Assembly (NCBI GenBank): GCA_905234755.1 | Contig: CAJOIT010000003.1 | Span: 895,139 to 959,138 of the forward strand | Direction of reading: 5' to 3' | Source: an uncultured Bacteroidales bacterium | GTDB lineage: Bacteria; Bacteroidota; Bacteroidia; Bacteroidales; ML635J-15 | DNA length: 64,000 nt | Shown: piece by piece, positions 28,316 through 50,200 of the stretch | How the letters are laid out: each line of letters starts with the position of its first letter | Position numbering within the stretch: the stretch's first letter is position 1 | Made by a program: the position numbers and the translations under genes | The notes under the pieces: generated by a model | Seen by the model: the letters and a program-made list of their open reading frames with translations, nothing else | Databases searched by the model: none | Told to the model about the DNA's origin: nothing

Positions 28316-28515
28316 ATAAGAAGCACCCACAATCACAACATATAGTTAATTCCAACATCTCTTTTCATCATTTTTCGGGATTGCACACCTATCGCAACAG
28401 CTGTACTTTTGCAAAACCAAAGTTAATTTACATTTATTTACACAAACTCAAAAAACGATGAACAAACTTTCATTTCAATAAAAACTGAATTTATAAGGCA
28501 TACAAAAATCATCGT

Positions 28516-28550
28516 AAAATTGGCTGTGTCGTGAGATACGGCCATTTTTT
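28516..28550 (+). terminator. Intrinsic terminator
   Basis: tggctgtgtc-gtga-gatacggcca + T-run. Confidence 0.72.
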
Positions 28551-28753
28551 GTATTAACACATATCAATGAAAACGAAAAAAGACAGTACTTCCTCTAAAG
28601 AAAATTTCTAACAGATTGATTATAAGCGACAAAATCTCTTTATTTTTGGTATAAAAATAGGAGATTTTTATGTAAGTTTGCAGTCTAACGAAAACACTCA
28701 TCCAGTCTGGGCTTCTGCTTTCGGGGGCAAACTATGCTTGGCAAAACAAGCCA

Positions 28754-28849
28754 TTGCTTGCATCACAAAACAAGGTTAAGACAACCGCAGGCTTCGAAAA
28801 TCCAAGATATTGGGCGGCCTTCATAATGCTTGACGGAAACGAAAAGTAA
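28754..28849 (+). pseudogene. C-terminal remnant of a CHAT-domain protein
   Basis: Translates LLASQNKVKTTAGFENPRYWAAFIMLDGNEK*; P.YWAAF..LD is the typical CHAT C-terminus. Confidence 0.65.
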
Positions 28850-28900
28850 GTTAAATGGTTTATAATTTTATGAGTTTCAGATGGTTTGAAAGTTAACCCT

Positions 28901-28939
28901 AACAACATCAAACAACATCAAACAACATCAAACAAATCA
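28901..28939. repeat. 10-bp tandem repeat aacaacatca (3 perfect + 1 degenerate)
   Basis: Directly visible. Confidence 0.85.
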
Positions 28940-28968: not shown

Positions 28969-30411
28969 TCATCTGCTACTCACAAACAGGTCATCAAGCG
29001 TAATTTGTGCAACGATATGTTCCGAATAGCTGTTCCTCTGCAAACCATTTACGGTGATAAATGTCGGTATGATGCCTCCTCCGAAACCTGTTTGCTGCTT
29101 GAAAAGCGCAATGCGAGTATTTAACTTCTCATATTCTTCTTTATCAAGTAAATAAGGCATATCGCTGTATTTTGCTTCACAAATATTAATCATTCTGTCT
29201 GCTCGTTCAATTACAAGATCAATCTGAGCATTCTGCTCATTGCCCGAATTTACGCTACGCCATGAGTAATATTCGGTTTTGATACCACTAATGCTTAGTG
29301 CATTTTTGATTTGAGCTATATGAGTCAGGCAAATGCGTTCGAACGAAAGCCCCATCCATGCGCTGATTTTCGGACTGTTGAGACCTTGCGTCCAGAAATG
29401 CTCGTTAGTTGGTTGTTTTTTTATGAAATGAAGGTAAAACAAAGAATAAAAGTCAAGCAACTGGTATAGTCCGTTGCGAGTAGAAATAGTTTTATTTTTC
29501 ACATTATAAAAGCGGACAATATCGCAATCTACAAGGCTTTGCAGCATTTTTGTAAGGTATCCGTTGGCATTAGTACCTATGCTTTTGGCAATTTCATCCC
29601 TCGTCATGCCCTTCTTTTTCGAAAAAAGTGCTTCGACAATGGCAATATACGGCTCCGGACTTGCAAACAATGTTTTGTATAACCGCTTAAATTCACGCCG
29701 CATTTCTCCATCTGCCTTGAAAAACAAACGATCAATATTCTGTGCTAAGCTTTCGGCTGGGTCAAGGAGACTTAAATAATAAGGTATGCCTCCAATTGCC
29801 ATGTATGTTTGCATTATCATTATTCTGTCCCACGGGAAACCATACGCACAAAGGTATTCTTCTGTTTCATGCAAGTTGAATTCCTTAAGATGCATTTCAT
29901 GTGTGATACGATCGTGCAGTCCGCCATGATTATCAATGATATTCTTCTTCATCCAAGATGTTGCTGAACCACATACTATAAGCATCATATTATCCTGCAA
30001 CGAAGCCCAACTATTCCAAAAATATCCCAAAGCACTGACAAAGTCCGATTTGCGAGTTTCAAAACATGGCAACTCATCAATAAACACTATGCATGGCTTG
30101 TTCTTTTTATTCTTGTCTGCAAGGAAATGACGCAACATTTGAAAAGCCTCGTACCAATTTTTTGGCTGCTTATTGGTAGGTTGACCATATATGTCCAGGG
30201 CATCTGTGAAGGCATGGATTTGTGCATTCTTGTCTCCATCCAAAACTCCTGTCATAGAGAATGTCAGTCTGTCTTTGAAGACTTTATTCACAAGAAATGT
30301 CTTTCCAACGCGTCGTCTACCATAAAGCGCGACAAACTCAGCTTTGCCCGATTCGGCATACTTGTTTAGTAACTTTATTTCTTCTTCTCGTCCAACAATT
30401 TTATTCAGCAT
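28969..30411 (-). CDS. AAA ATPase (archaeal-ATPase family) with wHTH and C-terminal PD-(D/E)XK nuclease-like domain
   Basis: YGRRRVGKT, VFIDE, CGS, GGIPYYL, QIDLVIE...ICEAK. Confidence 0.9.
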   Translation of the reverse strand: MLNKIVGREEEIKLLNKYAESGKAEFVALYGRRRVGKTFLVNKVFKDRLTFSMTGVLDGDKNAQIHAFTDALDIYGQPTNKQPKNWYEAFQMLRHFLADKNKKNKPCIVFIDELPCFETRKSDFVSALGYFWNSWASLQDNMMLIVCGSATSWMKKNIIDNHGGLHDRITHEMHLKEFNLHETEEYLCAYGFPWDRIMIMQTYMAIGGIPYYLSLLDPAESLAQNIDRLFFKADGEMRREFKRLYKTLFASPEPYIAIVEALFSKKKGMTRDEIAKSIGTNANGYLTKMLQSLVDCDIVRFYNVKNKTISTRNGLYQLLDFYSLFYLHFIKKQPTNEHFWTQGLNSPKISAWMGLSFERICLTHIAQIKNALSISGIKTEYYSWRSVNSGNEQNAQIDLVIERADRMINICEAKYSDMPYLLDKEEYEKLNTRIALFKQQTGFGGGIIPTFITVNGLQRNSYSEHIVAQITLDDLFVSSR

Positions 30412-30451
30412 AGTCTAATATTTTTCGGCACAAAGATAAAAAATAGTTTTC

Positions 30452-30581
30452 TGATTCGAGTGCTAAAACCAAAGAAATTTATTCGTTTTAGCACCAGAAT
30501 CGTGATACGAGTGCTAAAACGCCAATATTTTTACCGTTTTAGCACTATAATAATAGGTAATTTTATTTACGATTTAGCACC
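30452..30581. promoter_or_regulatory. Tandem palindrome array GTGCTAAAAC-N15-GTTTTAGCAC (51-bp period) over the ATPase promoter
   Basis: Two full units plus half site gatttagcac; minus-strand -7 box TATCTTTG at 30431-30438. Confidence 0.75.
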
Positions 30582-48213: not shown

Positions 48214-48331
48214 AATTATCCCCGAACATACATTTTATCTATTTCGGGGACAAATAAGCAAACGCTAATTGTCCCCGAAATAATATTTTTGTGCTTCGGG
48301 GACAAATAAGACATATTTATTTGTCCGTGAA
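48214..48331. promoter_or_regulatory. Tandem palindrome array TCCCCGAA-N15/16-TTCGGGGA (~52-bp period) upstream of ATPase 2
   Basis: Two full units plus degenerate third half site ttgtccgtgaa; -7 box TAACTTTG at 48343-48350. Confidence 0.75.
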
Positions 48332-48374
48332 ATAAAAATTAGTAACTTTGCAGTCGAATAAGAAAAGTAATGCA

Positions 48375-49820
48375 ATGGAAAACATAATTGGCAGAAAAGA
48401 AGAAATAGAAGAACTTAACACCTTATATCACAGCAAAAAAGCAGAGTTTGTAGCTGTTTATGGCAGACGCAGAGTCGGAAAAACATACCTTATAAAAGAA
48501 TTGTTCCGCGACAAAATGGCGTTTTACCACACAGGAATGTCGCCAATTGATTCGGCTGGCAACAACCTGCTGCAAGACCAACTGAAAAGTTTCCACAATT
48601 CGCTGTTGCGTTACGGCATGGAAGACGAAAAACAACCAGAGACTTGGTTGGACGCATTCTTTTTGCTTGAGAAACTGCTTGAAGACAAAGACGATGGCAG
48701 CCGACAAGTGGTCTTCATTGACGAACTTCCATGGATGGACACACCTCGTTCTGGATTTCTGTCAGCATTCGAACACTTCTGGAACGGCTGGGGTTCGGGG
48801 CGCAATAACCTAATGCTTATTGTTTGCGGTTCTGCGGCTTCGTGGATTGAAAACAACCTGATCAACAACCACGGTGGGCTTTACGACAGGCTCACATACG
48901 AAATAAAGATTTCTCCTTTCAACCTAGTAGAATGTGAAGAGTTCTTCAAGGCGGCGAACATCAAGCTGTCGCGCTACGACATTGTACAAGCCTATATGGC
49001 AGTCGGCGGCATACCTTATTATTTAGGGTTCTTCCGCAAAGGATTGAGCCTCGGGCAAAACATCGACCAACTTTTTTTTGCAAAAACAGCCAAGTTGAAA
49101 AAAGAATTTGAACGCCTATTTGCCTCATTGTTCCCCAAACCGACAAACTACAGAAAAATTATCAGCCTATTAGCGACAAGACACAAAGGTTTTACTCGTG
49201 ATGAAATTACAAAAGCTACTGGCATCCAAAAAGGTGGCGGTCTATCCAAAATGCTTGCAGCCCTAGAAGCCAGCGACTTCATATCTCGCTATGTGCCGTT
49301 CGGAGTCTCTAAACGCGAAGAGCACTACAAACTTACCGACAATTTCTGCCTTTTCCACGAAAAGTTTCTTGCCGGAAACGAAATCACTGACACCGACTTT
49401 TGGGAAAAGAACCAAAACTCGCAGAAACTTTCTGCTTGGAAAGGCATTGCCTTCGAAGAAGTGTGCCTAGCCCATATACAGCAGATTAAGAACGCTTTAG
49501 GAATCGGTGCCATAACTTCGCGGGAATCGGCTTGGAGCATAAAAGGCGACAAGGAAAACGACGGCACACAAATAGACCTGCTAATTGACCGCGATGACAA
49601 TATTGTAAATCTTTGCGAAATGAAGTTCCTGAAGGATAAATTTACAATCAACAAATCCTACGATGAAAAACTGCGTAGCAGAACGCAAATGCTAATAGAC
49701 CGACTGCCCAAACGCGCCACAGTCCACCTTACCCTAATAACCTCATACGGACTGAAATACAACGAATATTCGGGAGAAATACAAAAACTTCTGACATTGG
49801 ACTCCCTGTTTACAGAATAA
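48375..49820 (+). CDS. AAA ATPase (archaeal-ATPase family) with wHTH and PD-(D/E)XK-like domain, paralog 2
   Basis: YGRRRVGKT, VFIDE, GGIPYYL, QIDLLID...LCEMK; ATG 48375. Confidence 0.9.
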   Translation: MENIIGRKEEIEELNTLYHSKKAEFVAVYGRRRVGKTYLIKELFRDKMAFYHTGMSPIDSAGNNLLQDQLKSFHNSLLRYGMEDEKQPETWLDAFFLLEKLLEDKDDGSRQVVFIDELPWMDTPRSGFLSAFEHFWNGWGSGRNNLMLIVCGSAASWIENNLINNHGGLYDRLTYEIKISPFNLVECEEFFKAANIKLSRYDIVQAYMAVGGIPYYLGFFRKGLSLGQNIDQLFFAKTAKLKKEFERLFASLFPKPTNYRKIISLLATRHKGFTRDEITKATGIQKGGGLSKMLAALEASDFISRYVPFGVSKREEHYKLTDNFCLFHEKFLAGNEITDTDFWEKNQNSQKLSAWKGIAFEEVCLAHIQQIKNALGIGAITSRESAWSIKGDKENDGTQIDLLIDRDDNIVNLCEMKFLKDKFTINKSYDEKLRSRTQMLIDRLPKRATVHLTLITSYGLKYNEYSGEIQKLLTLDSLFTE

Positions 49821-49826
49821 CGCACT

Positions 49827-50200
49827 ATTTATCCCCGAACGCATATTTTACACATTTCAGGGATAAATAAGCAAATGCTATTTATCCCCAAATAAATTTT
49901 TTAATGCTTCGGGGAAAAATAAGACATTCTGCCTGCGCATTACTATTGATGATTATACAAGTCTTTCGGATTGCTGCCTCTGGCAGCGAGCTAAAGGTTG
50001 ACCATAGGGCGAACTAAAGGTTGCAAAACCGAAAGGACAAAATTGGTAAATATTCAAGTGTAAACAATAATTATCCTCATAATACATTTTACCAATTTGG
50101 TATAATAAGACATATTTATTACTTCGCGAAAATACGAAACCTGTAACTTTGCAAATGAATAACCAAAGAAATGCTATGGAGAACATGATTGGCAGAAAAG
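49827..50200 (+). repeat. Diverged duplicate of ATPase palindrome array, promoter and first codons, interrupted by a 176-bp insert
   Basis: 49827-49927 matches 48214-48314; 50104-50200 matches 48305-48399; aataagacat repeated at 49918 and 50104. Confidence 0.82.
49961..50038. repeat. Modular REP-like hairpin, 2 modules
   Basis: tttcggattg[27 nt][23 nt]caaaaccgaaa. Confidence 0.8.

Follow-up and report, generated by a model that had tools for sequence, protein, structure and literature searches.

The window analysed here, a stretch of 64,000 nucleotides, contains two paralogous genes, ATPase 1 and ATPase 2, each of which is preceded by an array of palindromes with an arm sequence of its own. 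Our preferred explanation, to which we assign a probability of roughly 60%, is that each array provides private sites for the wHTH of the adjacently encoded protein; that is, the arrays would be cognate self-operators, and probably repressing ones. This explanation draws on comparisons of DNA and protein sequences.

Arrays upstream of two ATPase-nuclease genes

ATPase 1 is a monocistronic gene on the minus strand (28969..30411), whose open reading frame encodes 480 aa with an AAA+/STAND-like ATPase, a wHTH and a PD-(D/E)xK nuclease. Upstream of it, the pattern GTGCTAAAAC-N15-GTTTTAGCAC is matched exactly by the promoter-proximal unit 1 (30460..30494) and by unit 2 (30511..30545), neither being assigned to a strand. 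The shuffle expectation of this array is 0.00, and two matches occurred in 0/100 dinucleotide shuffles. All four arms are 100% identical in the 80%-identical ortholog in genome G010, and the spacers diverge. Reading the sequence further outward, we also find a diverged distal half-site, GATTTAGCAC, at 30571..30580; it is not kept in the same ortholog and is probably a remnant.

ATPase 2 lies on the plus strand (48375..49820; 481 aa, with an open reading frame matching Pfam ATPase_2 and PDC-S27), and its protein is 42% identical to that of ATPase 1. Its array consists of a distal unit 1 (48219..48250), TCCCCGAA-N16-TTCGGGGA with extended arms TTATCCCCGAA and TTCGGGGACAA, a unit 2 (48272..48302) that has the same TCCCCGAA and TTCGGGGA arms (N15/16 over both units), and a degenerate promoter-proximal half-site, TTTGTCCGTGAA, at 48320..48331. 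Here too the shuffle expectation is 0.00, and neither array was reproduced by any shuffle. Over three orthologs, the arms are identical at 148 of 150 positions, compared with 80 of 93 for the spacers. Homology with the orthologs L106 and L107 stops ~120-160 nt past the stop codon. A decayed copy of this array, TATCCCCGAA..TTTCAGGGATAA plus TTATCCCCAAA..TTCGGGGAAAA, is found 10 nt past the stop codon, at about 49830..49917; it had escaped the earlier inspection of the window.

That inspection, a sequence-only reading, had reported both arrays (the second at 48214-48331), and the matches indeed fall at 30460-30545 and 48219-48302. The 51-bp period that it gave for ATPase 1 is exact, and its estimate of ~52 bp for ATPase 2 becomes 53 bp when measured. 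It had also placed the arrays just upstream of a -7 box. We read putative boxes of the TAnnTTTG type for both genes, TATCTTTG at 30431..30438 on the minus strand for ATPase 1 (a putative Bacteroidota -7 box) and TAACTTTG at 48343..48350 on the plus strand for ATPase 2, each being a consensus match only.

The encoded proteins

Both proteins are ATPase_2–wHTH–PD-(D/E)xK fusions. Their scores for Pfam ATPase_2 (PF01637) are 65.6 and 64.0 bits, respectively, against a cut-off of 33.2, and the motifs GRRRxGKT and D112-E113 are invariant in 88/88 sequences; the fold matches 2qen and 2fna. An AF2 model of ATPase 1 (pLDDT 93.8) contains a canonical wHTH at residues 252-318, in which a helix at 284-295 is followed by a beta wing at 299-318. 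The turn and recognition helix H3, GTNANGYLTKMLQS, correspond to the codons for residues 279-292 (29536..29577, minus strand), as located by the model and by the covariation peak described below. The equivalent segment of ATPase 2, GIQKGGGLSKML, was located by alignment with ATPase 1 (49221..49256, plus strand). The helices quoted in the sequence-only reading, GTNANGYLTKML for ATPase 1 and GIQKGGGLSKML for ATPase 2, are correct according to this alignment.

The nuclease domain of ATPase 1 comprises residues 347-480 (28972..29373, minus strand) and gives a weak match to DUF234 (PF03008), with 19.5 bits, which is under the cut-off of 22.5; ATPase 2 is not among the matches listed at E <= 0.01. 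The domain's model has a pLDDT of 93.7, and its VIA-align Z is 9.0 for NucS (2vld; rmsd 2.9 over 102 residues), 8.3 for AF1548, 8.0 for FokI and 7.6 for McrC, with Can2 also matched. E358, D398, E412 and K414, of which E412-x-K414 forms the ExK motif, are invariant in 88/88 sequences. By its modelled fold and its motif, the domain belongs to the PD-(D/E)xK superfamily, and catalysis is predicted. Since the fold is clearly of this type, the domain is presumably either a diverged member of DUF234 or a member of a neighbouring family.

The PADLOC model PDLC04984 (PDC-S27) matches ATPase 1 with an E-value of 1.4e-190 and ATPase 2 with 2.7e-202, covering 473-474 of 474 profile positions. With this full-length match and as single-gene systems, both proteins fit the definition of PDC-S27. 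PDC-S27 is a bioinformatic candidate for phage defence that has not been validated (PMC12988326, PMC13356809), and it is defined by ATPase_2 (PF01637) and DUF234 (PF03008), corresponds to COG1672 and fuses an ATPase to a PD-(D/E)xK nuclease, as do the proteins in the window (PMC12988326 on architecture). One survey gives 3503 archaeal and 4562 bacterial instances of PDC-S27 / COG1672 (PMC12988326). PDC-S27 genes are single-gene, widespread and patchy in distribution, and the genes in the window are likewise; in this genome the ATPase-nuclease genes lie amid housekeeping genes, outside defence islands.

Private palindromes, a wHTH recognition code and cassette borders are not mentioned in the accessible portions of PMC12988326 and PMC13356809. 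A text search of the main text of the source preprint (10.1101/2024.01.29.577857) gave no match for palindromes, and in the literature on DUF234, PF01637, COG1672, PDC-S27 and archaeal ATPase we found no description of palindromic sites. The sequence-only reading had proposed an undescribed system. This must be qualified: the protein family is already catalogued (PADLOC PDC-S27, COG1672), and for the palindromes no description was found in the literature.

Palindromes across the family

All 10 of the 10 paralogs in this 3.3-Mb genome have their own upstream arm sequence. The earlier statement that the arms of the two arrays are unrelated goes too far: half-sites family-wide share the skeleton nnnGC(G/C/T)AAA(A/T), whose distance to the dyad is fixed. 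The spacers are AT-rich, often with a central A/T run.

Rather than being missing from most homologs, which the sequence-only reading had named as counter-evidence to its proposal, a promoter-proximal palindrome defined by one rule is present at 144 of 183 homolog loci, compared with 95 of 890 control upstream regions. Arms of at least 10 nt occur at 113 of the 183 loci and in 27 of the 890 control regions, and 39 of the 183 loci have no palindrome under the same rule. The surveyed loci span Bacteroidota, Fibrobacter, spirochaetes, Firmicutes and Proteobacteria, and palindromes are present also at plasmid copies and at one copy in Wolbachia phage WO. Members with ~25% identity (Halorientalis, Rhodothermus plasmids) have no palindrome or an ambiguous one of another kind, and a copy in the present genome with 24% identity (C1:417846) lacks a comparable palindrome.

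Comparison of orthologs gives an identity of 0.90 for arms (783/870), 0.81 for spacers (570/704) and 0.75 for third positions of the coding sequence. Genome-wide, 24 of 28 full units are located within 2.2 kb of the cognate gene, and the other four have AT-rich or short arms. With full cognate units away from their own gene amounting to only these 4 of 28, all AT-rich or short-armed, we dropped the idea of a regulon.

The proximal-arm sites abut each gene's own promoter, as predicted by consensus. A TAnnTTTG-type box lies between the palindrome and the ATG at 66 of 72 loci, and in this 72-locus survey the median gap from the palindrome's end to the box is 21.5 nt. Distances from dyad to box have one mode of 20 loci at 35-39 and another of 11 loci at 45-49, the two being one helical turn apart.

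We also considered whether the sites might be phage targets. A scan of IMG/VR, which covered the single pattern of ATPase 1 in the form GTGCTAAAAC-N13-17-GTTTTAGCAC, returned two contigs sharing one common GC-rich site with no ATPase nearby; we attribute these matches to chance and rejected the idea.

Covariation between arms and recognition helix

The whole protein was scanned, without bias, for covariation with arm sequence. In this partial-Mantel scan with 10-aa windows (471 windows, 112 non-redundant protein/arm pairs), the top 7 of the 471 windows are all within residues 277-292 (r 0.18-0.19), and the observed maximum was reached in 1 of 200 permutations. The ATPase domain is mostly at ~0, the exception being a lesser peak (r about 0.15) at residues 72-83. 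Although localised, the covariation is small in size (partial r < 0.2), and with the smaller data set used initially, family-wise significance was not reached (18/200). Two candidates from the small set were set aside: a peak at residues 333-342 was not upheld, reaching ~0.08-0.11 in the larger set, and the nuclease-domain columns 385-386, which with some others were top in column-wise mutual information (MI), followed clade structure without a clean pairing and are not the main peak in the window scan of the larger set.

With phylogeny ignored, the MI z-scores are 9.0 for residue 285 with arm position 14, 7.0 for residue 285 with position 15, 8.6 for residue 283 with position 15 and 11.0 for residue 282 with position 18. 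His285 is paired with GGGC in 13 of 14 cases, and the close relatives L015 (Arg285, GTGCG) and L017 (Lys285, CTGCG) differ at precisely these positions. These data support the view that the site sequence tracks the predicted DNA-reading residues of the gene's own product, with the recognition helix as the only strong arm-covariation peak protein-wide. The co-evolving pairs of protein and site proposed by the sequence-only reading are thereby supported by the recognition-helix peak, by the residue-base correlations and by the better conservation of arms than of spacers.

Predicted function of the arrays

The proximal arm ends about 21 nt 5' of the TAnnTTTG box, and therefore cognate self-operators, probably repressing, are the best reading; among the roles offered by the earlier note, the autoregulatory operator likewise fits best, given the promoter position. 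In the arrangement that we infer, the protein binds its array physically and one palindrome unit would accommodate a dimer, an oligomeric state suggested by the symmetry of the sites only. Each half-site would comprise a variable core of 4-5 bp, about 15 bp from the dyad, plus an AAA tract on the inner side, and the N-terminal end of H3 (residues 282-287) would read the variable core. Because the units recur every 51-54 bp, or about five helical turns, neighbouring dimers would share a DNA face, and such same-face dimers might be joined via the AAA+ domain. The promoter-proximal arm ends ~20 nt 5' of the TAnnTTTG -7 box and covers the -33 region, and occupancy should therefore block RNA polymerase. 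With the polymerase blocked, each ATPase-nuclease would keep its own synthesis low, with no cross-talk with the nine other paralogs. Private operators would thus explain how ten paralogous nuclease genes can reside in one 3.3-Mb genome without regulatory cross-talk. Outer cognate copies, which lie far upstream or just past the stop codon, would most simply be auxiliary sites for looping or for loading of an oligomer, and may delimit a functional cassette.

Some observations are awkward for this reading. Simple autorepression would have no use for the downstream copies, which in several paralogs lie between convergent genes, and breakpoints exactly at the outermost arms are left unexplained. 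A look-up of RNA data gave 2 RNA runs that had 7% of the words; two short metatranscriptome contigs cover 199 and 152 nt of the gene and no part of the arrays, too little to bear on transcription starts.

The position of the arrays, taken alone, is compatible with activation as well as with repression. An ATP-bound oligomer at the -33 region might recruit RNA polymerase, with positive feedback once the sensor is triggered. This reading shares its evidence of binding (covariation, promoter position) with self-operators, and dyad-to-box modes 10 bp apart would suit a face-specific contact with the polymerase. However, a proximal arm extending into the -33 region would be more usual for occlusion, and unbraked positive feedback on a potentially toxic nuclease would be unusual; we regard activator sites as improbable. 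It is also conceivable that the array is primarily not a transcriptional operator, but the place where the ATPase-nuclease assembles: two head-to-head protomers would flank the AT-rich spacer and melt or distort the DNA, as Orc1/Cdc6 does on inverted ORB elements. The AT-rich spacers with central A/T tracts and the inward-facing arms at a fixed register would suit such loading, and Orc1/Cdc6-DNA and ORC complexes, including origin-DNA-bound Orc1/Cdc6, are among the top Foldseek matches (E 8.5e-10). This likeness is confined to the level of AAA+ plus wHTH (TM about 0.3-0.4), where Apaf-1 and NLRs score equally, and ten such arrays per chromosome, every one next to its own gene, would be senseless if they were replication origins. 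We therefore consider an origin-like role highly improbable.

We find it barely credible that the palindromes work by forming hairpins in RNA or single strands (as terminators, attenuators or small RNAs) or as sites of another host factor. Stems of 10 nt could fold, and the downstream copies are at a terminator-like position; yet the arrays in front of the genes precede the predicted -7 box, loops of 13-20 nt make poor hairpins, and the arms co-vary with the recognition helix of the neighbouring protein. In the one case inspected base by base, the arms are unchanged between orthologs, with no compensatory changes. No Rfam family was found when the whole window was scanned with gathering thresholds, and a tRNA scan of 26000-52000 found no tRNA. 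For a shared host factor, a separate sequence per paralog would be needless.

Downstream copies and cassette borders

The sequence-only reading had also raised the possibility of mobilisation ends. On this account, the palindromes would form the termini of a mobile or recombinogenic cassette made up of one gene, and the ATPase-nuclease, guided by its wHTH to these terminal sites, would cut or pair DNA there; its activity would move the cassette or cause adjacent insertions and deletions, and promoter control would be a by-product or a second function. Cassette borders, the different chromosomal positions of one cassette type in two species and downstream copies, all of which bear on this account, are new points of the present analysis. 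A cognate palindrome is present within 400 nt downstream of the stop codon at 36 of 133 loci; under a stricter rule, a downstream copy is found at 15 of 67 loci, compared with 1 of 4226 non-cognate combinations. Among the ten paralogs of this genome, the downstream copy is clear in six, decayed or uncertain in two and absent in two. For the paralog par7, whose cassette is found in 7 species, homology begins exactly at the first arm and ends exactly after the last downstream arm, and in the 5 other genomes that were searched, stretches of ordinary genes measuring 1.1-10 kb are either there or missing immediately beside one end or the other, giving 6 different flank combinations. Borders coincide with arms also for par1, par3, par4 (downstream) and par5 (upstream). 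Moreover, the ATPase 1-type cassette of G010 sits between genes, at a position where in the genome studied here (G000) the corresponding flanks are separated by 55 bp, and the site of ATPase 1 in G000 has no cassette in G003, where the flanks are ~169 bp apart. Copy number within the genus ranges from 0 (16 of 39 genomes) up to 13-14, and the family is found on 141 plasmid records.

Several facts speak against such mobility, and we judge it unlikely. No recent copies exist: identity among the 10 paralogs is 38-58%, far from the near-identity expected of an insertion sequence. Neither a target-site duplication nor a clean empty-site junction was visible, but with flanks of only 77-78% identity one might have been missed; the two empty-site alignments (ATPase 1 against G003, and the G010 cassette against this genome) gave neither a nucleotide-exact junction nor a target duplication. 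No solo arrays were found elsewhere in this genome, and 97 of the 133 loci, including ATPase 1, have no downstream copy. Because par7 keeps a syntenic position within the genus, its pattern is explained by vertical descent in which neighbouring genes turn over; selection for an intact functional unit would likewise put surviving breakpoints at the cassette edge. Finally, the proteins have no known transposase or recombinase fold, and their nuclease domain has a restriction-endonuclease fold of a generic type. The suggestion of mobilisation ends gains real, if indirect, support from the downstream copies and sharp cassette borders, and is weakened by the lack of recent copies. Downstream palindromes as operators of the neighbouring gene were rejected, because the next gene is convergent in par1, par2, par5 and par7.

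A bolder formulation, which we think quite unlikely, is that these genes represent a new kind of self-contained single-gene cassette, in which an ATPase-nuclease able to read DNA sequence would recognise private palindromes on either side of its gene and act on the DNA there, moving the cassette or provoking insertions and deletions at its borders. If this were true, the range of 0-14 copies per genome, the spread over phyla and plasmids and the sharp breakpoints at the outermost arms would be products of what the cassette itself does, and promoter control would be integrated in one of its ends. With sites on both sides of the gene and breakpoints exactly there, the proteins may act on their own borders, and might then be selfish or mobile units instead of, or besides, immune genes.

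Whichever reading applies, PDC-S27 / COG1672 is among the most abundant unexplained defence-candidate genes of archaea and of bacteria from gut and rumen. The palindromes offer a first handle on this family, in that each protein can be assigned a candidate DNA ligand, and a recognition helix is predicted together with residue-base pairings that could be swapped. They could also help genome annotators to delimit ATPase-nuclease cassettes.

Comparison with known systems

Archaeal Orc1/Cdc6 proteins are present in one to a few copies per genome. Like the ATPase-nucleases, they combine AAA+ with a wHTH, and their gene adjoins inverted sites that flank AT-rich DNA. The relation in sequence is remote, as a PDB profile search with the ATPase-nuclease returned only 2qen, with an E-value of 3e-4. 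Orc1/Cdc6 functions at origins and is without a nuclease domain, whereas the ATPase-nuclease has one.

In REP/RAYT systems and at the ends of IS200/IS605 elements, a gene is flanked on both sides by palindromes that are read by its own product, and the palindrome is specific to the class of gene. REPs, however, occur as hundreds of scattered copies, whereas the units described here are almost only at their own gene (24/28), and the ATPase-nuclease differs in fold from RAYT and IS200/IS605 proteins, having no HUH or Y1 domain.

BrxR/CapW and RptR are wHTH regulators that keep a defence locus repressed until infection by binding inverted repeats at its promoter. They are encoded by separate regulator genes and have other targets; in the present case the regulator is fused to the effector, and the sites are nearly all at its own gene (24/28). 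In the C proteins and C-boxes of restriction-modification systems, and in autoregulated toxin-antitoxin operators, a small HTH dimer on tandem palindromic operators at its own promoter holds a nuclease gene in check, and the specificity of the operator varies by system, so that there is no cross-talk. The half-sites here are about 30 bp apart, compared with about 10 for C-boxes, the units recur every ~52 bp, and copies are found downstream as well. In contrast to the C proteins, the ATPase-nuclease unites its DNA-binding domain with ATPase and nuclease in a single polypeptide.

Arrays at the two ATPase genes and their proteins

The window's two ATPase genes, ATPase 1 (28969-30411, minus strand) and ATPase 2 (48375-49820, plus strand), are apparently monocistronic open reading frames among ordinary neighbours (Obg, Fic, PAP2, AraC-type and MutL), and encode proteins that are 42% identical. 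Upstream of ATPase 1 are two exactly matching units, i.e., inverted arm pairs around a spacer, of the form GTGCTAAAAC-N15-GTTTTAGCAC (30460-30494 and 30511-30545), with a diverged half-site at 30571-30580. ATPase 2 has units of the form TCCCCGAA-N15/16-TTCGGGGA (48219-48250 and 48272-48302) and a degenerate half-site at 48320-48331. Both arrays lie directly 5' of a putative Bacteroidota-type TAnnTTTG box read from the sequence (30431-38, minus strand, and 48343-50, respectively). A previous sequence-only reading had reported arrays at these two loci; they are indeed present, and among 100 dinucleotide shuffles of the window none contained even one match to either pattern. The recognition helices quoted in that reading also proved right when ATPase 1 and ATPase 2 were aligned.

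Both proteins pass Pfam ATPase_2 (PF01637), the DUF234 match in ATPase 1 is sub-threshold, and both align over the full length of the PADLOC model PDC-S27 (E 1e-190 and 1e-202). Passages of PMC12988326 describe PDC-S27 as an abundant, unvalidated "putative defence candidate" in which an ATPase is fused to a PD-(D/E)xK domain, and a passage of PMC3424549 lists DUF234/COG1672 among PD-(D/E)xK families. The protein family is already known and named (PF01637, COG1672, PDC-S27), so the proposal of an undescribed system does not hold for the proteins. For the palindromic sites we found no description in the literature, including the main text of the bioRxiv preprint from which the PDC list derives, whose supplements may hold more on PDC-S27.

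An AlphaFold model built from 88 homologs (pLDDT 93.8) comprises an AAA+ core, a winged helix-turn-helix (wHTH; helices at residues 252-264, 271-278 and 284-295, wing at 299-318) and a C-terminal alpha/beta domain. When modelled separately (pLDDT 93.7), the last of these resembles PD-(D/E)xK nucleases, with VIA-align Z scores of 9.0 for NucS, 8.3 for AF1548, 8.0 for FokI and 7.6 for McrC. E358, D398 and E412-x-K414, like Walker A and Walker B, are invariant in 88/88 sequences. The structures closest to the whole model are the archaeal Walker ATPases 2qen and 2fna, followed by Apaf-1, Orc1/Cdc6-DNA and NLRs.

Palindromes across paralogs and homologs

The source genome (3.3 Mb, 14 contigs) encodes 10 full-length paralogs, par0 (ATPase 1) to par9, with par4 being ATPase 2. 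Their mutual identity is 38-58%, and each has its own upstream arm sequence. An exact palindrome of at least 8 nt lies upstream of 9 of the 10, and the tenth has 7-nt arms. Seven paralogs have tandem units with a 51-54-bp period; at par1, par5 and the weak par6, palindrome copies are 180-270 bp apart.

We also pooled homolog loci, 80 of them from genome contigs, 30 from the genus, 5 from plasmid or phage records (of 7 such records) and 80 from metagenomes; 183 of these loci were usable. A palindrome was counted if it had exact arms of at least 8 nt with at least 2 G/C, a spacer of 8-26 and a location within -200 to -15. Arrays are not missing from most homologs, an outcome that would have spoken against the sequence-only reading: a proximal palindrome was found at 144/183 loci, versus 95/890 upstream regions of the source genome's other genes. 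With arms of at least 10 nt, the counts are 113/183 and 27/890; an earlier count under a different definition gave 74/88 and 136/890. Taxonomically, the loci span Bacteroidota, Fibrobacter, spirochaetes, Firmicutes and Proteobacteria, and palindromes also occur at plasmid copies from Butyrivibrio, Emticicia and Paracaedimonas and at the Wolbachia phage WO record copy. The two remaining plasmid copies, which are about 25% identical and were viewed separately, lack a clear palindrome in the upstream regions inspected. The family is present on 141 plasmid and 7 phage records, and its copy number in the genus ranges from 0 (16/39 genomes) to 13-14.

Several individual loci deserve mention. The phage WO copy (MN180249.1, 11271-12734) is a 38%-identical family member that adjoins a head-tail connector gene and has its own 1.5-unit palindrome upstream, CCGCGGT-N23-ACCGCGG-N19-CCGCGGT. 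Some cassettes are decaying: 17 of the 117 genus matches to the family are interrupted by in-frame stops, 16 of them by a single stop and 1 by two. At a locus in a related genome (G043:C4:107138-108568), the called reading frame is only 128 aa. Two like units occur in 3/890 control regions, including that of a minus-strand, 367-aa gene of the source genome (G000:C1:212118) with a Fic-like N-terminus (by eye only) and its own palindromes, TTCGGCGA..TCGCCGAA and TTTTCGGTGAA; this may be another self-regulated accessory gene. A plus-strand, 426-aa gene (G000:C4:68873), which by eye only resembles a type I specificity subunit, is preceded by direct and inverted repeats of GGTGGTAGATAAAA and TTGGGTAAAAA.

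Unit anatomy and promoter position

When aligned on the dyad, half-sites across the family keep to a single register. The core, which varies, occupies positions 13-16, some 15 bp away from the centre; positions 16-17 hold a largely conserved G-C, position 18 is G, C or T, and positions 19-22 read AAA(A/T). Spacers are AT-rich, often with a central A or T run. As judged from sequence, the unit appears to join a variable major-groove core to an adjoining conserved A-tract, which is what a recognition helix plus wing would contact. Arm orientation in the arrays alternates every 25-26 bp, so that successive units are separated by about five turns of the helix.

A TAnnTTTG-type box lies between palindrome and ATG at 66/72 loci, with median gaps of 21.5 nt from palindrome end to box and 22.5 nt from box to ATG. 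Given the former gap, the proximal half-site would cover the -33 region of the predicted promoter, a position that favours, but does not prove, occlusion, i.e., repression. Dyad-to-box distances cluster at 35-39 (20 loci) and at 45-49 (11 loci), two modes that are separated by one turn of the helix. An RNA look-up returned only two short contigs, both inside the gene.

Conservation, privacy and covariation of the sites

Between the source genome's paralogs and 16 orthologs, arms are 90.0% identical (783/870) versus 81.0% for spacers (570/704); the corresponding values are 84.4% for linkers, 89.5% for the promoter-proximal stretch and 75.3% for third positions of the CDS. The ortholog of ATPase 1 in the related genome G010 (80% identical) has all four arms unchanged and different spacers; the distal half-site is not kept. 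We also searched the whole source genome for units of the ten arm types, allowing at most one mismatch per arm. Of 28 full units, 24 are within 2.2 kb of the cognate gene, and this search revealed neither a regulon nor solo arrays.

The sequence-only reading had further proposed that proteins and sites co-evolve. We scanned the protein in 10-residue windows, calculating the partial correlation of window distance with arm distance (positions 12-19) while controlling for distance over the rest of the protein, so the location of any signal was not assumed beforehand. In a small set of 72 pairs, peaks occurred at residues 278-287 (r 0.159, 2/2000 permutations) and 333-342 (r 0.166, 0/2000), and the family-wise test was weak (18/200). 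In a larger set of 112 pairs, non-redundant at 90%, the top 7 of 471 windows all fall in residues 277-292, i.e., the turn and recognition helix (r 0.18-0.19), and the observed maximum was reached in 1/200 permutations. The ATPase domain is mostly near zero, except for a smaller rise over residues 72-83 (r about 0.15). The co-evolution proposal is supported, with a small effect size.

Measured against shuffles that ignore phylogeny, residue 285 pairs with core positions 14 (z 9.0) and 15 (z 7.0), residue 283 with position 15 (z 8.6) and residue 282 with position 18 (z 11.0). His285 occurs with GGGC in 13/14 cases, no GGGC site has another residue at 285, and the His285/GGGC proteins span at least three wing types. 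Two loci whose proteins are more than 85% identical have Arg (L015) versus Lys (L017) at residue 285, and their corresponding core bases are G and C, respectively.

Downstream copies and cassette borders

At 36/133 loci, a further copy of the cognate palindrome follows the stop codon at a distance of no more than 400 nt; under a stricter rule, the count is 15/67, versus 1/4226 non-cognate pairings and 1/67 inside the CDS. In the source genome the downstream copy is clear at par1, par2, par3, par5, par6 and par7, decayed or uncertain at par4 (window 49830-49917) and par9, and absent from the inspected regions 3' of par0 and par8. We considered whether these copies might be operators of the neighbouring gene, and rejected this idea because several lie between convergent genes.

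The par7 cassette is also found in six further species. Its alignment begins exactly at the first arm (TTATAAGTTGCCAT) and stops exactly past the last downstream arm, with one unit fewer in two genomes. The locus is syntenic in the 5 of these species' genomes that were searched. Stretches of 1.1-10 kb with ordinary genes (MBL-fold, class-I amidotransferase, a TonB-receptor cluster) nevertheless abut either end of the cassette in some genomes and are missing there in others, giving six flank combinations. Homology borders also coincide with the outermost palindromes at par1, par3, par4 (downstream) and par5 (upstream). The par4 coincidence recurs against G035, G010 and G003, and a 75%-identical par4 copy elsewhere in G010 begins at the first arm. 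G010's ATPase 1-type cassette is flanked by two genes, and in the source genome the homologs of these two are separated by 55 bp; G003 has only about 169 bp where the source genome has ATPase 1 plus some repeats.

Other repeats occur nearby. Just past the ATPase 1 stop, in the place of other paralogs' downstream palindrome, is a minus-strand 10-nt tandem repeat, TTTGATGTTG x3 (also written TGATGTTGTT; window about 28905-28935). Between the PAP2 gene and the ATPase 1 3' end, sequences at 28332-28550 and 28697-28939 recur many times at 80-98% identity in the source genome and most genus genomes; they resemble a dispersed family of small repeats, and no Rfam or tRNA match was obtained for them. 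Two elements of about 40-70 nt just past the par7 downstream array (L097:3105-3245, on contig G000:C1; query 36-105 and 132-175) occur dozens of times in each of five related genomes, and a 26-32-nt element (query 887-918) is similarly multi-copy there. A second, 480-aa ORF is divergent to par1 on the opposite strand, 481-1923 nt upstream (region relative to G000:C3:250121-251563); tblastn gave no match between it and the ATPase family.

Interpretation and relation to known systems

The best-supported explanation is that each array serves the protein encoded beside it as a private operator. The wHTH of each ATPase-nuclease would read its own array, which would be placed to control the promoter of its own gene, most likely by repression. 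Such an arrangement accounts for the position, privacy, conservation and covariation of the sites. On its own, however, it leaves the downstream copies and the breakpoints at arms unexplained. The tamest account of these is that the additional copies are auxiliary sites, used in looping or oligomer loading, and that selection keeps the unit intact. A bolder possibility, which has indirect support, is that the ATPase-nuclease acts on the borders of its own cassette and that the cassettes may be mobile or recombinogenic. However, there are no recent copies, as the paralogs are at most 58% identical, and most loci lack a downstream copy. Nor is a target duplication visible at the ATPase 1-type sites when G010 and G003 are compared with the source genome, although identity between these flanks is no higher than 77-78%.

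Nuclease genes that regulate themselves through palindromic operators of their own, as envisaged in the operator explanation, are a known kind of system, which includes C-proteins, TA systems and BrxR/CapW-type regulators. What is new here is that reader, motor and nuclease are fused in a single chain, that half-sites are widely spaced with a unit period of about 52 bp, that what appears to be a readable residue-base pattern extends across a huge family, and that cognate sites bound the gene.
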